A DNA stretch of 64,000 bases. Source: an uncultured Candidatus Kuenenia sp. GTDB lineage: Bacteria > Planctomycetota > UBA11346. The position numbers were made by a program, and so were the translations under genes. Within the stretch, counting starts at the first letter, position 1. The number at the start of each line of letters is the position of its first letter. Where the stretch lies: NCBI GenBank assembly GCA_964654285.1, contig CAZZJC010000021.1, forward strand, positions 5,249 to 69,248, in the 5' to 3' direction. This document shows, piece after piece, positions 1 through 56,075 of the stretch. A model generated the notes under the pieces. It worked only from the letters and a program-made list of their open reading frames with translations, searched no databases and had not been told where the DNA came from.

Positions 1-3000
1 CCGAGAATGTCGCCGTCTTCCCCAATGTGACCGCCTGATCCTCGGGCATGCTTGTCATTGCGGGTGCGGTCCCAGTCGGCTTCACGGTCAAAGTCGCAGC
101 ATTCGTCATGGTGATTCCGATGCTATTCGAAACGACCACCCGGAACAACGCACCATTATCCATGATGGATGCCGCGTTTGTGGTGAAGCTCGATGCCGTT
201 GCACCGCTTATCGTGGTCCAGGTCTTGCCAGCATCGTTCGAACGCTGCCATTGGAAGGTCATTGCAGACGCGCTCGTCGCAGAGCATGAGAACATCGCCG
301 GCTTTCCGACAGTAACCTCGTAATTCGCTGGATGTGAGGTGATCGCTGGGATCTCCCCGGGACTCGTTACAGCCAGGACCGCATCATCCGAGACCACACT
401 GCCCGCACGGTTGCTGGCAACCACGCGGAATCTGGCGTTGTGGTCGCCGATGACGGTTGCGGCGGTGATGTACGTCGCCGCGGTCGCACCGCTGATGGCC
501 GTCCACGTTTTGCCAGCATCGTTCGAACGCGACCACTGGAAGGTCGGCGCCGGCGTGCCGCTGGCCGCTGCGGTGAAGGTCGCGGTCTGGCCGACCGTGA
601 CCGACGCGTTGGCGGGTTGAGTGCTGATCGCCGGTGCCACCGTGGGGATGGTGGCCGTCAGGACGGCTACGTTCGATGTCGCGCTGCCTGCACTGTTGCT
701 GGCGACCACGCGGAATCGGGCGTTGTGGTCGCCAATGACCGTTGCCGGGGTGATGTACGTCGCTGCCGTGGCACCGGCGATCGCGGTCCAGGTGCCTCCG
801 TCATCGTTCGAACGCGACCACTGGAAGGTGGGCGCCGGCGTGCCGCTGGCCGCTGCGGTGAAGGTCGCAGTCTGGCCGACCGTGACCGATGCGTTGGCGG
901 GTTGAGTGCTGATCGCCGGTGCCACCGTGGGGACGGTGACGGTCAGGACAGCCGCATTCGACGTGGCATTGCCGGCGCTGTTGCTGGCGACGACGCGGAA
1001 TTGGGCGTTGTTGTCACCGATGACCATCGCGGCGGTGGTGTACGTCGCCGCGGTCGCACCGCTGATGGCCGTCCACGTTTTGCCAGCATCGTTCGAACGC
1101 GACCACTGGAAGGTCGGCGCCGGCGTGCCGCTGGCCGCTGCGGTGAAGGTCGCAGTCTGGCCGACCGTGACCGATGCGTTGGCGGGTTGAGTGCTGATCG
1201 CCGGTGCCACCGTGGGGACGGTGACGGTCAGGACAGCCGCATTCGACGTGGCATTGCCGGCGCTGTTGCTGGCGACGACGCGGAATTGGGCGTTGTTGTC
1301 ACCGATGACCATCGCGGCGGTGGTATACGTCGCCGCGGTCGCACCGCTGATGGCCGTCCACGTTTTGCCTCCATCGTTCGAACGCGACCACTGGAAGGTG
1401 GGCGCCGGCGTGCCGCTGGCCGCTGCGGTGAAGGTCGCGGTCTGGCCGACCGTGACCGACGCGTTGGCGGGTTGAGTGCTGATCGCCGGTGCCACCGTGG
1501 GGATGGTGACCGTCAGGACAGCCGCATTCGACGTGGCATTGCCGGCGCTGTTGCTGGCGACGACGCGGAATTGGGCGTTGTTGTCACCGATGACCATCGC
1601 GGCGGTGGTGTACGTCGCCGCGGTCGCACCGCTGATGGCCGTCCACGTTTTGCCAGCATCGTTCGAACGCGACCACTGGAAGGTGGGTGCAGGCGTGCCA
1701 CTGGCCGCTGCGGTGAAGGTCGCGGTCTGACCGACCGTGACCGACGCGTTGGCGGGTTGAGTGCCGATCGCCGGTGCCACCGTGGGGACGGTGACGGTCA
1801 GGACAGCCGCTTTCGAGGTCGCACTGCCGGCGCTGTTGCTGACCACGACGCGGAATTGGGCGTTATGGTCGCCGATGACCGTCGCCGGGGTAGTGTACGT
1901 CGCTGCCCTGGCACCGACGATCGCGGTCCAGGTGCCTCCGCCATCATTCGAACGCGACCACTGGAAGGTGGGCACCGGCGTCCCACTGGCCGCAACCGTG
2001 AAGGTTGCGGTCTGGCCAACCGTGACCGAAAGGTTGGCGGGCTGAGTGATGATCGCCGGAGCCGCGATGTTGTTCCCCCCCTGGCTGAGTCCGGTTACGG
2101 CAAGCGAGTAATCCTGATTGCCGTATCTCAGCGACCCCTTGTGGCTGACCGTCAGCGTGTAATTCCCCTGCATCGGCGCACTGATCAGAACCTGTTCCAC
2201 GTTATCGGTCGTATTGTCACCAGGAACAGCCTTGCAGTAGATTCCACCCCAATCCGTGTTCAGCGAACCCCGATCGAAGGGCGGATAGAAATCGCTGCCT
2301 ACGACAAATGGCATGACGAAGGGACGATAGACGCTGCCATCTGGGCCGATGAGTCGCAGGTCCAGATCATTCACCAGCGCCCCGGTGCGCGTGGTAATGG
2401 GCAAGCGAACGGAGGAAGCGGGTGCAGGATCAAGCCAGGCCAGGGTCACCCGGATCGGATTTGCTCCATCGCAGGTATAGCTTCGAGTGGAAACGGTTCC
2501 CTGAGCCAGGTTGGATTCCACGATGACCCCGGATGATGGCTGGTCAGCCTGGCGTTTCACGATGCTGCCCGCAGCCAGGACATTCACGTAACCCCAGCCG
2601 AAATTATAGTCCGGACCGGATACCCCCATGTCGTCCGCCGTGTTGATCAATAACGCCTTCAGGGTTGATGAGCGCAGATACTGACCGGGAAAACGTTTAC
2701 GGTAGTAGTCGATCAATACGACTGCACTTCCAGCCGCATTGGGTGATGACATGCTGGTACCGGTTCTACTGGCATAGTTATCATTGGGATAGGTTGATAA
2801 CAGACCTGAACCATTGGCAGTGAGATCCGGCTTGATCCGTCCACCAAAGGTTGGACCCCGGGATGAACTGGATTCCAATCCGACTGGTGCCACCACCCTT
2901 CCCTGGGCATCGCGTTCCAGGTCCAGGGCATTGGCGATGTCGAGACCGTTCTTGCTGATATTATTCATTCCAGCCATGGTATTTAAGGAATTTCCAGCGG

Positions 3001-9167: not shown

Positions 9168-10577
9168 CTAGGCGTCGTAGTAGAGGTAGAACTCGTAGGG
9201 ATTCGGGCGCAGCTTCATCGGCTCGACCTCGTTCTCGCGCTTGTAGGCGACGTAGGTGTCGATGAAGTCCTCGGTGAAGACGTCGCCGGCGGTGAGCCAC
9301 GACTTGTCGGCGAGCATCTCATCGATGGCCTGGCCGAGGCTGTCGCAGGTGCCGGGGATGGTGGCCAGCTCCTCGGGCGGCAGGTCGTAGATGTTCTTGT
9401 CCATCGGCTTGCCCGGATCGATCTGGTTCTTGATGCCGTCGATCATGGCCATGGTGATGGCAGCGGTGACCAGGTAGGGGCTGCCGCTGGCGTCGGGGCA
9501 GCGGAACTCGAAGCGGCGGGCCTTGTCGCTGCCGACGTGCGGGATGCGCACCGACGCCGAGCGGTTGCTGGCCGAGTAGGCCAGGTTCACCGGAGCCTCG
9601 TAGTGGGGGACCAGGCGGCGGTAGCTGTTCACCGAGGGGTTGGTGAAGGCCTGGATCGAGCGGCCGTGCTTGAGGATGCCGCCGATGGCCCAGATCGCCT
9701 GCTGGCTGAGCTTGGCGTAGGCGTTGCCGGCGAAGAGGTTCTTGCCGTCCTTCCAGATCGAGGTGTGGCAGTGCATGCCGCTGCCGTTGTCGCCGAACAT
9801 CGGCTTCGGCATGAAGGTCGCCGTCTTGCCGTGCTGGTAGCAGGTGTTCTTGACCGCGTACTTGTAGAGGTGGACCAGGTCGCCCGCGGTGATCGCGGTG
9901 CCGAACTTGATGCCGATCTCGCACTGGCCGGGGCTCGCCACCTCGTGGTGGTGGAGATCCACTTCCATGCCCATGGTCTGCATGTTGGTGGTGATCTCGC
10001 TGCGCAGGTCCATCAGGGTGTCCTGCGGGGTCGCCGGGTAGTAGCCCTGCTTGTGGCGGATCTTGTGGCCGAGGTTGACGCCGTCATCGACGCCCATGTT
10101 CCACGGGGCCTCGACCGAATCGAGGTGGTAGAACGAGCCCTGCGGCGCGCTCTGGTAGCGGATCGAATCGAAGATGAAGAATTCGGGCTCGGGGCCGAAG
10201 TAGATGGTGTCGCCGATGCCAGTGGACTTGAGGTAGTCCTGGGCCTTGCGGGCGATGGAACGGGCGTCGCGCGAGTAGCGCTGGCCGGTGCGCGGATCGA
10301 AGATGTCGCCGAAGAAGCAGATCGTGGGCTGCTCGCGGAACGGGTCGATGAAGACCGACGCCGGATCCGGCTTGATCAGCATGTCCGACTTCTCGATGCC
10401 CTGCCAGCCGCGGATCGAGCTGCCGTCGAACGGCAGGCCGTCCTCGAAGATCGACGCCTCGAGCCGGCGCGCGACGATCGTGAAGTGCTGGAGGGTGCCG
10501 AAGATGTCGCCGAACATGATGTCGACGTACTTGGCGCCGTGGTCTTTGGCGAGCTGGAGGGCTTTCGCAACGCTCAT
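9168..10577 (-). CDS. glnA: Glutamine synthetase type I
   Basis: MSVAKALQLAKDHGAKYVDIMFGDIFG... continues to ...KPMFGDNGSGMHCHTSIWKDGKNLFAG...NPSVNSYRRLVPHYEAPVNLAYSASNRSASVRIP, which are canonical GS-I motifs. A GGGAGAA RBS precedes the ATG at 10577. The ORF-track start at 10751 is an upstream extension. Confidence 0.95.
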   Translation of the reverse strand: MSVAKALQLAKDHGAKYVDIMFGDIFGTLQHFTIVARRLEASIFEDGLPFDGSSIRGWQGIEKSDMLIKPDPASVFIDPFREQPTICFFGDIFDPRTGQRYSRDARSIARKAQDYLKSTGIGDTIYFGPEPEFFIFDSIRYQSAPQGSFYHLDSVEAPWNMGVDDGVNLGHKIRHKQGYYPATPQDTLMDLRSEITTNMQTMGMEVDLHHHEVASPGQCEIGIKFGTAITAGDLVHLYKYAVKNTCYQHGKTATFMPKPMFGDNGSGMHCHTSIWKDGKNLFAGNAYAKLSQQAIWAIGGILKHGRSIQAFTNPSVNSYRRLVPHYEAPVNLAYSASNRSASVRIPHVGSDKARRFEFRCPDASGSPYLVTAAITMAMIDGIKNQIDPGKPMDKNIYDLPPEELATIPGTCDSLGQAIDEMLADKSWLTAGDVFTEDFIDTYVAYKRENEVEPMKLRPNPYEFYLYYDA

Positions 10578-27632: not shown

Positions 27633-28344
27633 ATGCCCAGAACCCTGATCGCCGTCGAGTCCATTCAGCGTTCGATCCACCACTTGCGCGGCCAGCGGGT
27701 CATGACCGACGCCGACCTTGCCCGGTTGTACGGCGTCACGACCAAACGCCTGAACGAAGCCGTGAAACGCAACAGCAAGCGTTTTCCCTCGGATTTCATG
27801 TTCGAACTGACGCTGGCGGAGGAGGATGGTTTGAGGTCGCAATCTGCGACCTCAAAGGCCACGCCACCAGCCAGGGGCGGTCGCCGCTATCGGACCCACG
27901 TCTTCACCGAGCAGGGCGTGGCGATGCTCTCGAGCGTGCTTCCAAAGAACTTCCCCGCTGCGCGGGGTTCCGGCTGGGCCGGAAGGGTCGGCTTCGCCGT
28001 CCCAAGTTCTTGTTTGTCCGGGGGCTGCCCCCCCGTAACGCGCCTCCGGCGCTCCCCCATGAGCAGCCTGATGGCTGCTCAACAGCCCGCGCGCCATTGC
28101 GGTCAATATCGAGATCATGCGCGCCTTCGTGCAGATGCGGAAAACGCTGACGGCGAACGTTGATCTGGCCAAGCGGCTGGCGGTGCTCGAAGCCGAGATG
28201 GGTCGCCACGCCGCCGAGTTCGGGCACCACAAGGCTGAGACGGTGCGGGCAATGAAAGTGGTCTTCGCCACCTTGAAAGCCCTGGCAGCCGAAAAGGCGG
28301 CGCCTGAACCCAAACGCAATCCCGTCGGATTCGTGCTGAAATAG
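27633..28344 (+). pseudogene. ORF6N (KilA-N-like) domain protein gene disrupted by insertion of a ~150-bp MITE-like element
   Basis: MPRTLIAVESIQRSIHHLRGQRVMTDADLARLYGVTTKRLNEAVKRNSKRFPSDFMFELTLAEE...RRYRTHVFTEQGVAMLSSVL is a canonical ORF6N domain. After the insert the protein continues in another frame as NSPRAIAVNIEIMRAFVQMRKTLTANVDLAKRLAVLEAEM... (ORF 28117..28344). Confidence 0.7.
27936..28084. mobile_element. MITE/REP-like multi-hairpin repeat element, copy A
   Basis: About 92% identical to 36893..37044. It contains the nested inverted repeat aagaacttcc...ccaagttctt and hairpins ccccgc-tgc-gcgggg, ttccggc-tgg-gccggaa, cggggg-ctgc-cccccg, gcgcc-tcc-ggcgc and gcagcc-tgat-ggctgc. Confidence 0.75.
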
Positions 28345-28384
28345 CGGCTTGTCCGCAGCCAGGGCGCGGGCACCCTCGACACCC

Positions 28385-36299: not shown

Positions 36300-39200
36300 T
36301 CACCGCCGCAACCGGACCCGCACCGACACGATCGCCCAGGCCCCGATCGCGAAGGTGAATCCCTCGCCATCGATCGCGGCCGTCGCACCGGCCAGCGGCC
36401 GTTCGAGCAGATCGACCGGAACCGCCGCGGCGATCGCGCCCCACGCGGCGGCATCGAGATGGACGCGGGCGGTGGCAGCGGTGCCGATGAGTTCCTGCAC
36501 CCGGATGATCACGCCATCGCCGTCCTCGGCCGGCTTGAGCTGGGTCACCGCAACGTGGGCTGGAGTACAGGCGGTGACGGTCGGACTGGTGCCGGCCAGG
36601 CGTCCGGCATGGGCGTCGGTGACGGCCCAGCGCAGGGCGTGGTTGGCTTCGACGCCCAGGCGGTGCGGAAGTTCAGGCGCGAGCTTCGTTCCGACCTGGA
36701 AGAGGAAGTTCCAGGCGTGGTCGCCGATCTCGGGCAGCGGATCCGGATCCCAGGTCGCCCGCAGCAGGTGGACCACCAGGGCATCGGTTTCGAGGGCGTA
36801 GTTGGAAATACCGTCGTTGGCCAGCACCGCGCCGGCATCGCGGCCGCGCACCGCGACCCGGCGCAGGGTGGGCAGGGTGCGGCCCTTGGGTTCGCGCTTC
36901 CTAAGAACTTCCCCGCTATGCGGGGTTCCGGCTGCGCCGGAAGGGTCGGCTTCGCCGTCCCAAGTTCTTGTTTGTCCGGGGGCTGCCTGCCCCCGTAGCG
37001 CGCCTCCGGCGCTCCCCCATGAGCAGCCTGACGGCCGCTCCAGCGACCCGAAGGGGATCTCGGCGGTGGCGAGCGGCGACGATCCGTCGTCCGACAGGCC
37101 AAGCGGGAAACGCAGCGACAGGCGCGGAGTGCCCAGTTCCGCTGACCCGCGTTCGAGCCAACGCGTCTCGACCTTCAGCCGCAGGCGGTTTTCGCCGCCG
37201 GCCAGGGTCCAGGTCAGGGTGATGCGGCTGTCGCGGTGGCGGAAGACCGCCTGGATCACCGCGAGATACGGCCCGTGCTGGAGAATCTCGATCTTGTCGC
37301 AGCCGAGCGCCACGATGTCGCGGGTATCATGGATCACCCACGACGAAGCCGGAGCGGGCCGTTCGATGGTGACCACGGGCAGGCCCAGGCAGGCGCCGGC
37401 GGGGACGAACTCGCGACCGCTCGACCGCTCGACCAGGCTCCCGATGCCGCCGCGCACGGTGTCGAAACGCACGGTGAGATGCTCGTTTTCGAAACCCAGA
37501 CGGCCGAAGGGCGAGGCGATCTTCCCTTGGCTTTCCAACTGCCCTTCGTGGTCGCACACCGTGCCGACCGTACCCGGTCCGGCAGCGGCCTTCGCAACCG
37601 CGGGCGCGGCGGGATCGACGACCAGGGCATAGGCGGTCCAGCCGCCGGCCGCCACTCGCGCCGGCACGGCGAGGTCGGTCCACGAGTGCGCCCACCAGCG
37701 GCCGGTGCCCAGCACCTGGGCCCGGACCATGGTGCCCTGGGCATCGCGGACGGCGAACGCATGCGGTGGCGGCACCGGCTGAGCGCGATCGATGTTGCCT
37801 TCCCAGGCGCGCACGGTGATCACCTCCTGGCGGTCCCAGGCGCTGGGATTGGCGACCACGATGGCGAGCGGCCAGCCGTCGACCGCCTGCGCCGCGCTCG
37901 CGTTGCCGACGACGAAACCGGCACCGGCGCCCAGGTTCAGACGCGCCAGGTTGGGGACGGGGTTCCGGCCGGCGGTGCTGGCGCTGGGGGAAGGCTGACC
38001 GGCCCAGGACGTGTCGACCACCTGGGCGAGGGCGCGCAGGGCGGTGGACTGCACGCTCTGCGCTTCGGCCAGCACGCGCTGGGTCATGCCCACAGTGTAG
38101 GCCTTCGAGTCGGCGGTGTTCGATCCCGGCAGGATGTCATGGAAATGCGTGAGCAGCGCGTCGCGCCAGGCGGTGGCCAGGCGCGCGCGCGGCGGCTGCA
38201 CGCCGCAGGCGGCGAAGGCCAGCGCGCCGGCGCCATCGGCGTCGGCCAGCGCGTTCTCACCCTGGCGGTTGGCGCGCTTGACCGCCGACTGCGAGATCAG
38301 GCAGCCGGTCAGCTCGAAGTTGAGTTCGCGATCCCAGGTCGGCAGGCGGTCGCCGAGTTTTTCCAGTTCCGTGAAGAAGGTCCGCGCGGTCGAGAACTCC
38401 CAGCGCGGCCACACCGGCCAGGCATCCATGTCGAGGATGCGTTCGATGTGCCGCCGGGTCGGGCCGCCGCCGTGGTCGCCGACGCCGTAGACCATCATCC
38501 AGGTGCGCGCGCCGGTGGCGCGGGCGAAGGTCGTCACCGCTTTGATTTGATCCGGGCCGCAGAGGTTCATGTAGTCGGCGAGTTCGCGCAGGACGAGCAC
38601 CCGCGAGCCATCAGCGGTCTGCCACCAGAACGCCGGCGGACGGTCGTTCCCGCCGCTGCGTTGCAGGTAATAGTATTTCACCCCGGCGCGGGCATCGATC
38701 GCGGGGATGCTGGCGGCGTGGCCGAAGCAGTCCGGCACCCAGTCCACCGGCACGTCATCGGGCATCAGGCCGAGGTGTTCCTGCATCCAGGCGCGGGTGG
38801 TGAGCAGCTGCCGCGCGACCGCCTCGCCGCCGGCGGTGTTGCGTTCGCCCTCGACCCAGTGGCTGGCGGTGACCTCCCAGCGGCCCTCGCGGATGCGCGC
38901 CGCGACCTCGGCGAACAGGTCCGGATCGTGGTGGCGCAGAACCTCGTACAGCACGCCCTGCGACTGGCTGAAGCGGAAACCCGGATATTCGCGCATCAGG
39001 CGCAGCACGGTGCGGGTGGTGTCGAGCATGGTGCCGACCGTTTCCTGCCACGGCCACTGCCAGTTGATATCGAGGTGCGCGTGGCCGACGCAGTGGACGC
39101 GGTACGACCGCGCCGTCGCCGCCGCCGGCGCGAGCACGGCTTCGGCCTCGGCCAGCGCCGCGTCGACCGGCCGGCCGGCCTCGACCGCAGCGGCGAACCC

Positions 39201-39356
39201 GCGTTCGGCCGCCTCGGCCAGCGCCGGCCAGAGCGCGCCTTCGGCCGGATGCAGGGTCGCCAGATCGCGCACGAACCCGGCCTGCGCCCGCAGCCGTTCG
39301 GCGAAATGCTTCTCACGGACCTGACGGCGGGCGATGGCGGCGGCGGGCGTGGTCAT
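36300..39356 (-). CDS. Glycoside hydrolase family 38 alpha-mannosidase carrying an in-frame 49-aa insert derived from the MITE-like element
   Basis: N-terminal ...HCVGHAHLDINWQWPWQETV... is a GH38 signature. The C-terminal beta-sandwich runs ...AEIPFGSLER[PSGCSWGSAGGALRGQAAPGQTRTWDGEADPSGAAGTPHSGEVLRK]REPKGRTLPTLRRVAV..., where the bracketed segment is encoded by repeat copy B. The ATG at 39354-39356 has a GAGGA RBS. Confidence 0.75.
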   Translation of the reverse strand: MTTPAAAIARRQVREKHFAERLRAQAGFVRDLATLHPAEGALWPALAEAAERGFAAAVEAGRPVDAALAEAEAVLAPAAATARSYRVHCVGHAHLDINWQWPWQETVGTMLDTTRTVLRLMREYPGFRFSQSQGVLYEVLRHHDPDLFAEVAARIREGRWEVTASHWVEGERNTAGGEAVARQLLTTRAWMQEHLGLMPDDVPVDWVPDCFGHAASIPAIDARAGVKYYYLQRSGGNDRPPAFWWQTADGSRVLVLRELADYMNLCGPDQIKAVTTFARATGARTWMMVYGVGDHGGGPTRRHIERILDMDAWPVWPRWEFSTARTFFTELEKLGDRLPTWDRELNFELTGCLISQSAVKRANRQGENALADADGAGALAFAACGVQPPRARLATAWRDALLTHFHDILPGSNTADSKAYTVGMTQRVLAEAQSVQSTALRALAQVVDTSWAGQPSPSASTAGRNPVPNLARLNLGAGAGFVVGNASAAQAVDGWPLAIVVANPSAWDRQEVITVRAWEGNIDRAQPVPPPHAFAVRDAQGTMVRAQVLGTGRWWAHSWTDLAVPARVAAGGWTAYALVVDPAAPAVAKAAAGPGTVGTVCDHEGQLESQGKIASPFGRLGFENEHLTVRFDTVRGGIGSLVERSSGREFVPAGACLGLPVVTIERPAPASSWVIHDTRDIVALGCDKIEILQHGPYLAVIQAVFRHRDSRITLTWTLAGGENRLRLKVETRWLERGSAELGTPRLSLRFPLGLSDDGSSPLATAEIPFGSLERPSGCSWGSAGGALRGQAAPGQTRTWDGEADPSGAAGTPHSGEVLRKREPKGRTLPTLRRVAVRGRDAGAVLANDGISNYALETDALVVHLLRATWDPDPLPEIGDHAWNFLFQVGTKLAPELPHRLGVEANHALRWAVTDAHAGRLAGTSPTVTACTPAHVAVTQLKPAEDGDGVIIRVQELIGTAATARVHLDAAAWGAIAAAVPVDLLERPLAGATAAIDGEGFTFAIGAWAIVSVRVRLRR
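36893..37044. mobile_element. MITE/REP-like multi-hairpin repeat element, copy B (inside GH38 CDS)
   Basis: Same element as 27936..28084. Most differences fall in hairpin loops (tgc to tat, tgg to tgc, ctgc to ctgcct) with the stems preserved. Confidence 0.75.
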
Positions 39357-54600: not shown

Positions 54601-54659
54601 CCGACATCGAACCCGAGGTGCTGGGCGAATCCAGGCTGCGCTACACCTTGAAGATGTGA
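51630..54659 (+). CDS. Ser/Thr protein kinase fused to a C-terminal DUF342/FapA-like beta-helical domain via a long disordered linker
   Basis: Kinase motifs GQLGKGGMAVVYRA...VALK, HRDIKPANIF, DLGLA and GTPAYIAPE. Then about 170 aa of low-complexity sequence with a repeated (S/P)DRQ motif. Then ...VVIRGAVKDGAKISSASDVFVCGDLHDAEISAGGSLQVEGAIHGGDQALVVGETIVAE...CEIRATGKISVGSIAGGSLVAGGDVDIG, which are FapA-like G/D beta-helix turns. A coiled coil ends the protein. It is the real gene inside the artefactual 1487-aa ORF 50196..54659. Confidence 0.8.
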   Translation: MPEVSTSGHGRELANGTSVGMYRITGQLGKGGMAVVYRAVHAALGREVALKVVSPQFAEDPTFRSRFLREAQVAARINHPNVVTCFDAGEGDGRLFMALELVTGGDLLDLLDRRGGRLDEVLALGLMRDALAGLEAVEAAGLVHRDIKPANIFITDGGQAKVADLGLARVSGNDQVTQPGVIMGTPAYIAPEQANGVPDLDIRADLYSLGASLYHLLTGQPPFSSDSAVATLIKALNEPVPDPAILRPDLTPGCRTLILRLMEKDRNRRHVSARQAREEVETLLTGRQPELASGGHPGVRTQRLAAAPVRDPALVRAVEQRDAGQVEPNAERQRTTAAPAQPTTERRRSETSLAPSRPDSGSNRPASASDRQRTQAGERPATPTPAAPGPGTDRQGPAPDRQGSAADRHGSASDRQRVQTGDRSRSSPAVTAKSGGPATPAPRPATPAPPGSGQPPANLRIDPTQLALLVKRIIVDFEAMTAAIVLAPGASFPRFLLDQIISGAGIVHGLIPGAIHETTRTSQVARRIVLARGDPPSPGFPGRNVRGEDIPALEVPLTIRISDDAMTAWAFSKPNLIVTREALEPILKRSGIRYGLDLDALRKLVDGPPAPDGRRAIARGRPMDPGRAAGFVPPGREGGTPDLATVANLQEVPAGTVLGTFTDAEPGIPGMDVLGRELPCPKLEAIPPEQLAGEGTEIGRDRDGRLVLRSTRQGMVVRNPDGVVRVVGVFEVKGDFGPGDPPIETNDVVVIRGAVKDGAKISSASDVFVCGDLHDAEISAGGSLQVEGAIHGGDQALVVGETIVAESCEVRRVLASSVRITGEVRNCEIRATGKISVGSIAGGSLVAGGDVDIGTAGDLAGTTTELWAGHSLSYSEQERLSRLDDQRREAERTRLVDEAKLLHADLADAELKKKRHASASYANRDHLQAIEAKLRQFESAQENLRNAAEEHRKALEKRRAASDRLRKLGDNTEARVSVKVVAHKGVVARLADIEPEVLGESRLRYTLKM

Positions 54660-54926
54660 CCAGCGAGGCTTGCGCCCCAGCCCGACGGCGCCGCATGCTG
54701 CGCATGTCCCCGCTGCGCGGGGATCGGACTGCGGCGACGGTGGCTACGCCACCTTCCCGCTGCGCGGGACAAGCCCGCCCCCGCTCACTCGCTGGCGCTC
54801 CTTCGGGGGATTGCTCCTCGCGGGCTATGCCCGCCAGGGACTCTCGTCCCTGGACCCGCACAGACCCGACTCGTGCGGAAGTCTGACTTCCTGAATCAAA
54901 CCCCCTTCACTCAAGGACCCTCGCGC

Positions 54927-56075
54927 TCAGCCGAAGGCGCGCGTCAGGCGTTCCAAGGCGGTTTCCAGCGTCGCGCGCGGGCAGCCGAAGTTCAGGCGCA
55001 GCCAGCCCGGGGCGGCGAAATCGCGGCCGTCGGACAGGCCCACGCCATGCGCCACCGCATGCGCGGCCGGATCGGCGACGCCGCTCTGCCGCGCGTCGAT
55101 CCAGGCCAGGTAGGTCGCCTGGCCCGGTTGCCAGGACAGGCGCGGGAGCTTCGCCAACGCCTTGCCGACCAGGTCGCGGTTGCGCCGCAGGTGGTCGAGC
55201 AGCGCGTCGAGCCACGGCCCGCCGGTGCGCCAGGCGGTCTCGGCCCCGAGCATGCCCAGGCCCTCGGCGCTCGGCACGATGCCGGCCCCGGCGGCGCGGA
55301 AGCGCTTGCGCAGGTCGGCATCGGGGATGATCGCGATGGCGCAGCACAGGCCGGGCAGGTTGAAGGTCTTCGATGGCGCGTAGAGCGTGACCGTGCGCTT
55401 GACCAGGTCGGGCGCGGCGCACACGAACGGCTGGTGCCGGCCGTCCAGCACGAGGTCGGCCCAGATCTCGTCGCTGAGCACCCACAGATCGTACCGCCGG
55501 CAGTGCTCGGCCCAGGTCGCGAGTTCGCCCTCCGTCCAGACCCGGCCGGTGGGATTGTGCGGATGGCAGAAGAGCAGGCTGCGCGTGGTCGCGTCGGTGG
55601 CGGCCTCCAGCGCTGTTTGATCAAGCGCCCACCCCCCATGCCCGGACGCAGCGGATCCCTGGGCCAGGCCGACGCGCAGCAGGCGCTGGCCCTGATTGCC
55701 CGGCGCGCTGAGGAACGGCGGATAGCAGGGGGTCGGGCAGAGATGCCCATCGCCCGGCGCGCCGATCGCGCGGCAGAACATGTTGAATCCGGTCACCACG
55801 CCGGGCAGCGGCACGATCGCGTCCGGTTCGACCGTCCAGCCGTGGCGGGTCGACAGCCAGGCGCAGGCGGCTTCCGCGAACGAGCGCTGCGGCACGGAAT
55901 AGCCCAGCACCCCATGGTCGAGCCGCGCCCGCAACGCCGCCAGCACCGCCGGCGGCGCCGGCGTGTCCATGTCCGCCACCCAGGCCGGCACCACGTCGCG
56001 CCCGGCCCAGCGCTCCCACTTCATGCTGCCGGTGCCACGGCGATCGGGGCAGCGGTCGAAATCCCAGGCGGTCAC
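54927..56075 (-). CDS. PatB/MalY-type cystathionine beta-lyase (class I/II aminotransferase fold, C-S lyase)
   Basis: (V)TAWDFDRCPDRRGTGSMKWE... is the MalY/PatB N-terminal signature. A PLP lysine is present in ...LYAPSKTFNLPGL.... GTG start at 56075 (alternative ATG at 56024). Confidence 0.7.
   Translation of the reverse strand: MTAWDFDRCPDRRGTGSMKWERWAGRDVVPAWVADMDTPAPPAVLAALRARLDHGVLGYSVPQRSFAEAACAWLSTRHGWTVEPDAIVPLPGVVTGFNMFCRAIGAPGDGHLCPTPCYPPFLSAPGNQGQRLLRVGLAQGSAASGHGGWALDQTALEAATDATTRSLLFCHPHNPTGRVWTEGELATWAEHCRRYDLWVLSDEIWADLVLDGRHQPFVCAAPDLVKRTVTLYAPSKTFNLPGLCCAIAIIPDADLRKRFRAAGAGIVPSAEGLGMLGAETAWRTGGPWLDALLDHLRRNRDLVGKALAKLPRLSWQPGQATYLAWIDARQSGVADPAAHAVAHGVGLSDGRDFAAPGWLRLNFGCPRATLETALERLTRAFG

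Follow-up and report, generated by a model that had tools for sequence, protein, structure and literature searches.

Two copies of a 141-nt element lie within protein-coding genes

The window, i.e., the whole 64,000-nt stretch of DNA that we analyzed, is an ordinary chromosomal region of 68% G+C, with glnA, gap, murA-like, mreB, glgB, menD, tyrS and leuS among its genes. Within this region we identified two copies (A and B) of a repeated, non-coding element that was previously uncatalogued, and whose canonical unit is 141 nt, i.e., 47 codons, with a G+C content of ~70%. Both copies are located inside coding sequences, as the first-pass annotation had claimed, with copy A in a gene encoding an ORF6N-domain protein on the plus strand and copy B in a gene encoding a GH38 alpha-mannosidase on the minus strand. 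The genes and inserts are as follows:

27633..28347, plus strand: host gene 1, encoding an ORF6N-domain protein, interrupted by copy A
27941..28079, minus strand (the putative folding strand): copy A insert, 139 nt, i.e., the canonical 141 nt minus 2 nt
27938..28076: alternative placement of the copy A insert, GCT being present at either junction
27938..27940, no strand assigned: GCT triplet left of copy A, with its second occurrence at 28077..28079
36300..39356, minus strand: host gene 2, encoding a GH38 alpha-mannosidase of 1018 aa with four Pfam GH38 domains
36899..37039, minus strand: copy B insert, 141 nt, in frame with the GH38 gene (alternative placement 36896..37036)

Two copies of ~92% identity had been reported at these places from inspection of the sequence, and our alignments bear this out: the copies are 92-93% identical over ~146 nt (MAFFT, blastn), with the similarity ending abruptly on both sides, and 32-mers taken one from each half of the element occur in the window only in copies A and B, where shuffled sequences lead us to expect 0 occurrences. 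The borders of both copies were refined using empty orthologous sites, and because GCT is present at both junctions, each border can be shifted by 3 nt. The GCT triplet of copy A is either a 3-nt target duplication or a conserved cleavage-site triplet. The 2-nt deletion in copy A lies within the loop and stem of one hairpin (H4, below).

Searching the window and all related loci with nhmmer and a five-copy profile found no further copies, the sole extra signal being a weak partial match at 54698..54752 (E = 0.036). The spacer at 54660..54925 separates two genes that converge on it, a Ser/Thr kinase-FapA ORF (end at 54659) and an aminotransferase ORF (end near 54927). It is dense in short perfect hairpins, with a DNA fold z of -4.75, and its hairpins at 54709 and 54756 are CCCGCTGCGCGGG, the same as element hairpin H1; this spacer may represent a second REP-like repeat family with a module in common with the element. 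Elsewhere in the window, at 173..1897, there are six 285-nt tandem repeats that are 67-70% identical to the first. These lie inside a long ORF (440..2536), the protein of which would have 95-residue repeats, and in another frame the same region has a stop codon every 285 nt.

Three orthologous sites are empty in close relatives

An ENA metagenome contig (L001) is syntenic with the window (mreB, ORF6N, glgB ... menD, GH38, tyrS) and encodes a GH38 protein 88% identical to that of the window. The element is absent at both sites in L001, and we therefore class copies A and B as recent insertions. At site A, the L001 sequence reads AGCGTGCT/CAACAG (here and below, a slash marks the point of insertion or junction), where the window carries 139 extra bases, and this empty site already has the TGCTCA motif. 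The Pfam ORF6N domain of the interrupted gene (E = 5.6e-32) ends at the copy A insertion point, and copy A frameshifts the gene just after this domain; in silico removal of 27941..28079 gives an intact 190-aa ORF6N protein that is near-identical to the L001 ortholog. In the public annotation, a spurious out-of-frame ORF of 215 aa (P0127; 27503..28150, plus strand) spans copy A and is present in place of the interrupted ORF6N gene.

Site B has 141 nt inserted and 3 adjacent host bases lost when compared to L001, a net gain of 138 nt, i.e., 46 codons. The host loss of exactly 3 nt (one His codon) relative to L001 is located at 36893..36898, beside copy B. The GH38 reading frame continues uninterrupted through copy B, which encodes residues 775-820, and exactly these 46 residues are missing from all six aligned homologs, at identities from 88% down to ~41%. 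An AlphaFold model of the C-terminal 466 residues of GH38 (mean pLDDT 83) places the insert as a structureless loop (pLDDT 30-50) between two confident beta strands, and on the strength of this prediction the insert is plausibly tolerated as a disordered loop.

A third empty site is present in a contig (L011) encoding a RadC ortholog that is 91% identical to the RadC of another element-bearing contig, L004. In L011 the site reads ...GCTGTGAGC/GACCGC... (GTGAGC/GAC), with the RadC start codon GTG overlapping the stop codon of the upstream gene, and in L004 141 nt are inserted exactly after ATGAGC. The RadC start codon is thus ATG with the element (L004, position 10001) and GTG without it (L011, position 2284). 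The A of the L004 start codon pairs with the last T of the terminal hairpin H6, and the corresponding pair in a further copy, L010, is G-C. Either selection for a longer hairpin or chance could account for this ATG/GTG difference.

The element folds into seven helices with conserved stems

In both copies, an outer 8-bp stem (H0), formed by AAGAACTT and AAGTTCTT, encloses three perfect hairpins (H1-H3) with no unpaired bases at the junction. This four-way junction is followed by three more hairpins (H4-H6), giving seven helices in total:

27945..28011, minus strand: copy A four-way junction, with H0 at 27945-27952 and 28004-28011
27953-27967, 27968-27984 and 27985-28003: copy A H1, H2 and H3, inside H0
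28019..28052, minus strand: copy A H4 (~28019-28036, with the 2-nt deletion) and H5 (28040-28052, GCGCC TCC GGCGC)
28060..28081, minus strand: copy A terminal hairpin H6, TGAGCAGCC TGAT GGCTGCTCA, with its outer five bases at 28077-28081 (GCTCA on the plus strand, TGAGC on the minus strand) being host DNA
36903..36969, minus strand: copy B four-way junction, with H0 at 36903-36910 and 36962-36969 enclosing H1-H3
37020..37041, minus strand: copy B terminal hairpin H6, with one G-T wobble and one terminal mismatch, its outer arm at 37037-37041 (GCTCC on the plus strand, GGAGC on the minus strand) being host DNA

The arrangement of hairpins nested in a longer inverted repeat is therefore as the first-pass annotation had described it, and this fold is far more stable than expected by chance. 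Minimum free energies are ~-80 kcal/mol for RNA (z ~-4.5) and between -48 and -54 kcal/mol for DNA (z between -6.9 and -7.9), whichever strand is folded, and none of 200 shuffled sequences matches this stability in either case. The differences between copies had been described as falling in loops with the stems conserved, and this holds in the four full copies that we compared, where 16 of 47 unpaired columns are variable vs. 9 of 98 paired columns (Fisher p = 0.0007). Covariation, which had been proposed as a check, was also found: across six copies, 97% of cells are paired, the observed covariation is reached in 0 of 500 shuffles, and three compensatory pairs are real, two in H0 of L005 (A-T to C-G and T-A to G-C) and one in H6 of L010 (G-C to A-T). 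A fourth pair counted as covarying proved to be an alignment artefact from a truncated copy, and we rejected it. Three stem changes affect one side only; each produces G-T on the minus strand, and would be an A-C mismatch on the plus strand. These data support the conclusion that the hairpins are maintained, in that substitutions avoid the stems, are compensated, or form a G-T wobble.

The loops show a strand-specific pattern. On the minus strand, G is the first and A the last base of every consensus loop. There are four consensus triloops (GCA, GCA, GAA and GGA), all closed by C-G, and H1-H3 contain exact heptamers, namely GCGCAGC, GCGCAGC and GCGAAGC. As tetraloop we find GYCA and, in most copies, GNNCA as pentaloop. 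Outside the two copies, only ~5% of the perfect triloop hairpins in the window show this loop type on that strand. DNA of the type d(GCGNAGC), like d(GNA) loops closed by a C-G pair, forms extraordinarily stable mini-hairpins, which occur in single-strand replication origins (PMC13037366, PMC3201870). We take the loop pattern as evidence, rather than proof, that it is the minus strand that folds, as single-stranded DNA; support for this strand is thin, consisting of the three wobble changes (p ~0.125) together with the loop pattern. GC skew is flat in this region and does not indicate the lagging-strand template.

Insertion occurs next to TGAGC, which completes the terminal hairpin

Direct comparison of the two ends of the element found no terminal inverted repeats: the left end, TCCAAAGAAC, and the reverse complement of the right end, AGCCGTCAGG, share only GCC/GGC. 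The first-pass description of the element as MITE-like is not supported by this comparison. The ends themselves, which had been listed for definition along with any target-site duplication, are now placed to within 3 nt. On the minus strand, TGAGC is located immediately 5′ of the element in copy A, L004, L005, L006 and L010, with GGAGC in copy B, and the MSS/MSN N-termini of two copies known from protein sequence only (P0122 and P0129) imply ATGAGC there. The element ends in AGC on this strand, so that the order on the plus strand is GCT, element, GCT CA, and GCT/AGC is present at both junctions in five of the six full copies, where it is always the same triplet and may thus be a fixed cleavage triplet and not a duplication.

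Examination of the three empty sites demonstrated that TGAGC (GGAGC for copy B) is host DNA. This host pentanucleotide pairs with a GCTCA located 12 nt inside the element, and the pairing forms the 9-10 bp H6, i.e., a hairpin that is half host and half element. Start codons of the form [A/G]TGAGC make up five of nine insertion sites. This share may in part reflect detection and survival bias, five of the nine sites having been found via annotated ORFs, which could bias the set toward start codons.

Further copies are rare and found in related metagenomic assemblies

Since gene callers translate the element, we searched protein databases with the element translated in six frames. In collections of 5.8 and 1.8 billion proteins, this identified seven further independent sites, all in related metagenomic assemblies, bringing the total to nine; an exhaustive search in one frame of 1.84 billion protein representatives found four proteins. 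The further sites are as follows:

L004 (the same site as L008): start of a RadC gene
L005: start of a glycosyltransferase gene, on a contig of 76% G+C
L010: start of an aminotransferase gene
L006 (the same site as L007), 10316..10467: 5′-truncated copy, without H1 and the outer stem
P0122: two tandem units after Met-Ser, identical at the protein level
P0125: 3′ end of an ABC-transporter gene, known as protein only
P0129: variant 18 nt shorter, known as protein only

In L004, L005, L010 and each of the tandem units of P0122, the element adds 47 aa after Met-Ser, and element-encoded N-terminal segments of the form MSS(R/P)QAAHGG... are present in P0122, P0123, P0124, P0128 and P0129. The truncated L006 copy lies in an ORF without a known domain and adjoins genes of toxin-antitoxin type (BrnT, PIN). 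With seven more sites and conserved stems, both things on which the first-pass annotation had made its reading depend, further copies and a conserved structure, are present.

Nucleotide searches gave few matches. Exact scans found 0 matches to a 45-mer in genome contigs and 0 matches to a first 23-mer in metagenome contigs. A better 23-mer, CCGGCGCTCCCNCATGAGCAGCC, is shared without change by six of the seven copies for which DNA sequence is available. In a set of 185,579 species representatives it occurs in two places, both in one genome (CAMCMZ01); in JGI metagenomes it has no true match, the single match (L009) sharing only ~26 nt with the element; and in viral contigs it has 0 matches. A blastn search against phages and plasmids gave no match. 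Rfam 15, another check that had been proposed, gave 0 matches at gathering score in the window, and a permissive search of the copy A region yielded chance-level matches only, with a best E of 1.2, well short of gathering scores. The element is thus novel, as first described, with no Rfam, phage or plasmid match. The expectation that two insertions in 64 kb point to an abundant family fails: two places in one of 185,579 genomes, and nine sites in billion-protein collections, are those of a rare, low-copy family. That the family is active is supported, in that three orthologous sites are empty in close relatives.

The genome CAMCMZ01 is titled Candidatus Kuenenia stuttgartiensis, and its element is on contigs CAMCMZ010000016.1 (L007) and CAMCMZ010000053.1 (L008), of 67% G+C. 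We consider this label or binning doubtful, because the element contigs, at 67% G+C, match the window's high-GC relative (the L006 and L004 sites). Named homologs of GH38 and RadC are mostly from Planctomycetota or Phycisphaerae, at 40-60% identity. Judging from sequence alone, the host of the element family is probably an uncultured, high-GC, deep planctomycete lineage.

How the element would move

The element is mobile, as the empty sites demonstrate directly; its mode of movement is what we infer. The reading that we favor, and that we hold somewhat likelier to be right than wrong, is that of a family of non-autonomous 141-nt elements moved as folded single-stranded DNA by an enzyme acting in trans. 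The element would be cut out and pasted as folded minus-strand single-stranded DNA, with the putative enzyme, encoded elsewhere in the genome, recognizing the hairpins, and with the internal GCTCA acting as a guide that base-pairs with the target to choose the site. The principle would be that of the HUH (Y1) transposases of IS200/IS605 and of REP-associated TnpA. This enzyme is purely a supposition, since no candidate gene is present in the window or near the other copies: we found no HUH, DDE or recombinase gene among the ~40 ORFs of the window, all of which are housekeeping by Pfam, and no HUH, DDE, recombinase, tnpA, RAYT or tnpB gene near the other copies in the related loci. What points to a single-strand HUH logic is the lack of inverted repeats, the hairpin-rich ends, a pentanucleotide target paired with a guide, the same triplet at the other end, the strand asymmetry and the presence of tandem units. 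Excision by this route would yield a circle or tandem junction of the form ...TTCTTTGGCAGC/AGCCGTCAGG... For comparison, IS608 picks its target by pairing with a guide beside a subterminal hairpin, and has no inverted repeats and no target duplication (PMC3201880, PMC3333891, PMC5934647).

Insertions within genes could survive because the element is 47 codons long and four of its six frames are free of stop codons. Copy B and the copies right after Met-Ser starts are examples of survivors, and copy A is an example of an insertion that inactivates. We rejected the idea that the element is designed to be stop-free, since four open frames vs. the ~2.4 expected at this G+C content (our own estimate) is not significant.

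Several observations argue against an HUH mechanism: the two ends have no similar subterminal hairpins; the guide helix is of plain Watson-Crick type and takes in the junction, unlike the IS608 geometry; only nine sites are known; and AGC at both junctions would equally fit a 3-bp target duplication made by a DDE transposase. This last point is the basis of a reading as a classical MITE, i.e., a deletion derivative of an insertion sequence moved by double-stranded DDE transposition, with a 3-bp GCT/AGC duplication and a preference for TGAGC-like targets. The same triplet flanks the insert in five of six fully sequenced copies, the tandem pair in P0122 shares one triplet, and a short (141 nt), non-coding and strongly folding unit has typical MITE traits (PMC10969869). 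The element has, however, no terminal inverted repeats beyond GCC...GGC, these being the defining feature of MITEs; conservation of the target reaches two bases past the triplet, to bases that pair with the interior of the element; the strand-asymmetric loop pattern is not explained by a double-stranded mechanism; and no insertion sequence is present in the 64 kb or in the related loci. We therefore regard a MITE as an unlikely explanation.

Less probable again is a mini-cassette that a site-specific recombinase would move by acting on its single-stranded, folded form, in the manner of attC or XerCD, with exchange within the shared AGC core. An integrated terminal hairpin made of element plus flanking DNA would be as in attC, the core triplet is present at both junctions, and tandem units occur; against this, we see no core of the GTTRRRY type, no R′′/L′′/L′/R′ organization and no integrase or attI-like platform, and the sites are scattered in ordinary genes and not in an array.

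We think it highly improbable that the element, instead of being selfish DNA, is retained by the host as a functional structured RNA, be it a small RNA, a cis-regulatory element or a small self-excising intron. Its conserved stems, with compensatory and G-U-compatible changes, and its RNA fold (z ~-4.5) would suit such an RNA, and splicing of the element at the RNA level would restore ORF6N exactly. Its orientation with respect to the host gene differs, though, being antisense in ORF6N and sense in GH38; it lies within coding regions and is absent from the orthologous sites of relatives with 88-91% identical proteins; the Rfam searches described above are likewise negative; and copy B, when scanned for promoters and terminators, showed no signal resembling either. 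The intron variant of this reading we rejected on the opposite orientations in the two host genes, and no group I or group II intron known to us comes close to so small a size. Finally, an assembly or chimera artefact, or chance similarity, which the origin of the window in a metagenome-assembled contig might have suggested, is refuted by the presence of the element in independent ENA, Logan and NCBI assemblies, at different sites and at 80-94% identity, and by the shuffles, which expect 0 occurrences; we give it practically no credence.

Returning to the folded single-strand element, a bolder version of this reading can be put forward tentatively. The element could represent a new class of single-strand, hairpin-built mobile DNA, the target of which would be programmed by GCTCA-TGAGC Watson-Crick pairing, with the target itself serving as the outer arm of the element's terminal hairpin. 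An unrecognized enzyme of HUH or recombinase type would move the element, or the element would be an orphan IS605-like end or omega-RNA module, and it would be a second, independent case of "selfish DNA in protein-coding genes," outside Rickettsia.

Significance

Very small palindromic elements can colonize protein-coding genes outside Rickettsia, and the effect on the gene is either a disordered segment of 46-47 residues or an N-terminal extension right after Met-Ser. The target rule is unusually clear, in that TGAGC is chosen and then becomes part of the element's own terminal hairpin, and this makes the mechanism directly testable. If the guide and target do pair in the way proposed, the target could be re-programmed, as has reportedly been done already for IS608. 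What is unusual about this element is that its terminal hairpin is completed by the target and that its loops are all of GNA type. For annotation, the element misleads gene callers, giving rise to false "MSSRQAAHGG..." N-termini and to the spurious 215-aa ORF that replaces the broken ORF6N gene. The element is also a sensitive strain-level marker for this uncultured lineage.

Comparison with known systems

Integron attC sites are 57-141 nt in length and fold as single strands, and their recombination point splits the terminal stem. The likeness to our element is that the integrated unit takes part of a hairpin from neighboring DNA; in contrast to attC, the element has no R′′/L′′-L′/R′ boxes, no GTTRRRY core and no integron platform, and its copies are scattered in housekeeping genes.

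The defining trait of MITEs is a pair of terminal inverted repeats (~4-30 bp), and MITEs are usually AT-rich and intergenic, whereas the element described here has no terminal inverted repeats, is ~70% G+C and has strict target specificity. Bacterial MITEs (Correia, ERIC, Chunjie, QMITE) are small, non-coding, strongly folding and strain-polymorphic, and can fuse with host ORFs (PMC10969869).

Rickettsia palindromic elements (RPEs) are ~150 bp, highly palindromic and non-autonomous, and are often found in frame within genes, adding a peptide without destroying the protein (PMC10969869). The insertions in copy B (which adds 46 aa to GH38), L004, L005, L010 and P0122 are likewise in-frame and palindromic. 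For RPEs, a single reading frame specifying a conserved peptide has been reported; the present element, which occurs in a different phylum, is translated by its host genes in no fewer than four frames and in either orientation. We know of no sequence relationship between the element and RPEs, and a pentanucleotide target completing a terminal hairpin is not, to our knowledge, a described RPE feature.

The REP/BIME family consists of short, GC-rich hairpins repeated in the genome and sometimes located in genes, which a domesticated HUH enzyme, encoded at another locus, is believed to move as single strands, and which also occur as tandem units (PMC3733652, PMC3333891). Our element is similarly made of short GC-rich hairpins repeated in the genome and in genes, and has tandem units. 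A REP is one imperfect palindrome of 20-40 bp that carries a conserved tag, GTAG or CGTC, and REPs are usually extragenic and present in many copies. Here, by contrast, the mobile unit is a fixed 141-nt composite with seven helices; the position resembling GTAG varies, with GTAG 5′ of H5 in copy B only and GTAA, GTAC or GGAA in the other copies; and there are two copies in 64 kb and two in the sole positive species-representative genome, with most copies inside ORFs. The first-pass label "REP-like" therefore does not fit an element with no conserved tag, no single 20-40 bp palindrome and a low copy number.

Members of the IS200/IS605 family transpose in a strand-specific manner as single strands, with no true target duplication (PMC3201880, PMC3333891, PMC5934647). 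Like these and their miniature derivatives (PATEs), the element has no inverted repeats, has hairpins near its ends, and is inserted 3′ of a fixed 4-5 nt guide-paired target, which is here the pentanucleotide TGAGC (GGAGC once). It differs in three respects: no hairpin sequence is common to its H6 end and its four-way-junction end, whereas IS200/IS605 elements have similar imperfect palindromes, bound by TnpA, near both ends; its guide is located 3′ of a mini-hairpin of 4 bp, and target and guide make up one continuous Watson-Crick helix, whereas the IS200/IS605 guide is located 5′ of the hairpin foot; and it is far richer in hairpins than known ends. The element resembles RPEs in its effect on genes, and IS200/IS605 and REP in its probable mechanism, and by the tests that we ran it is a member of neither.
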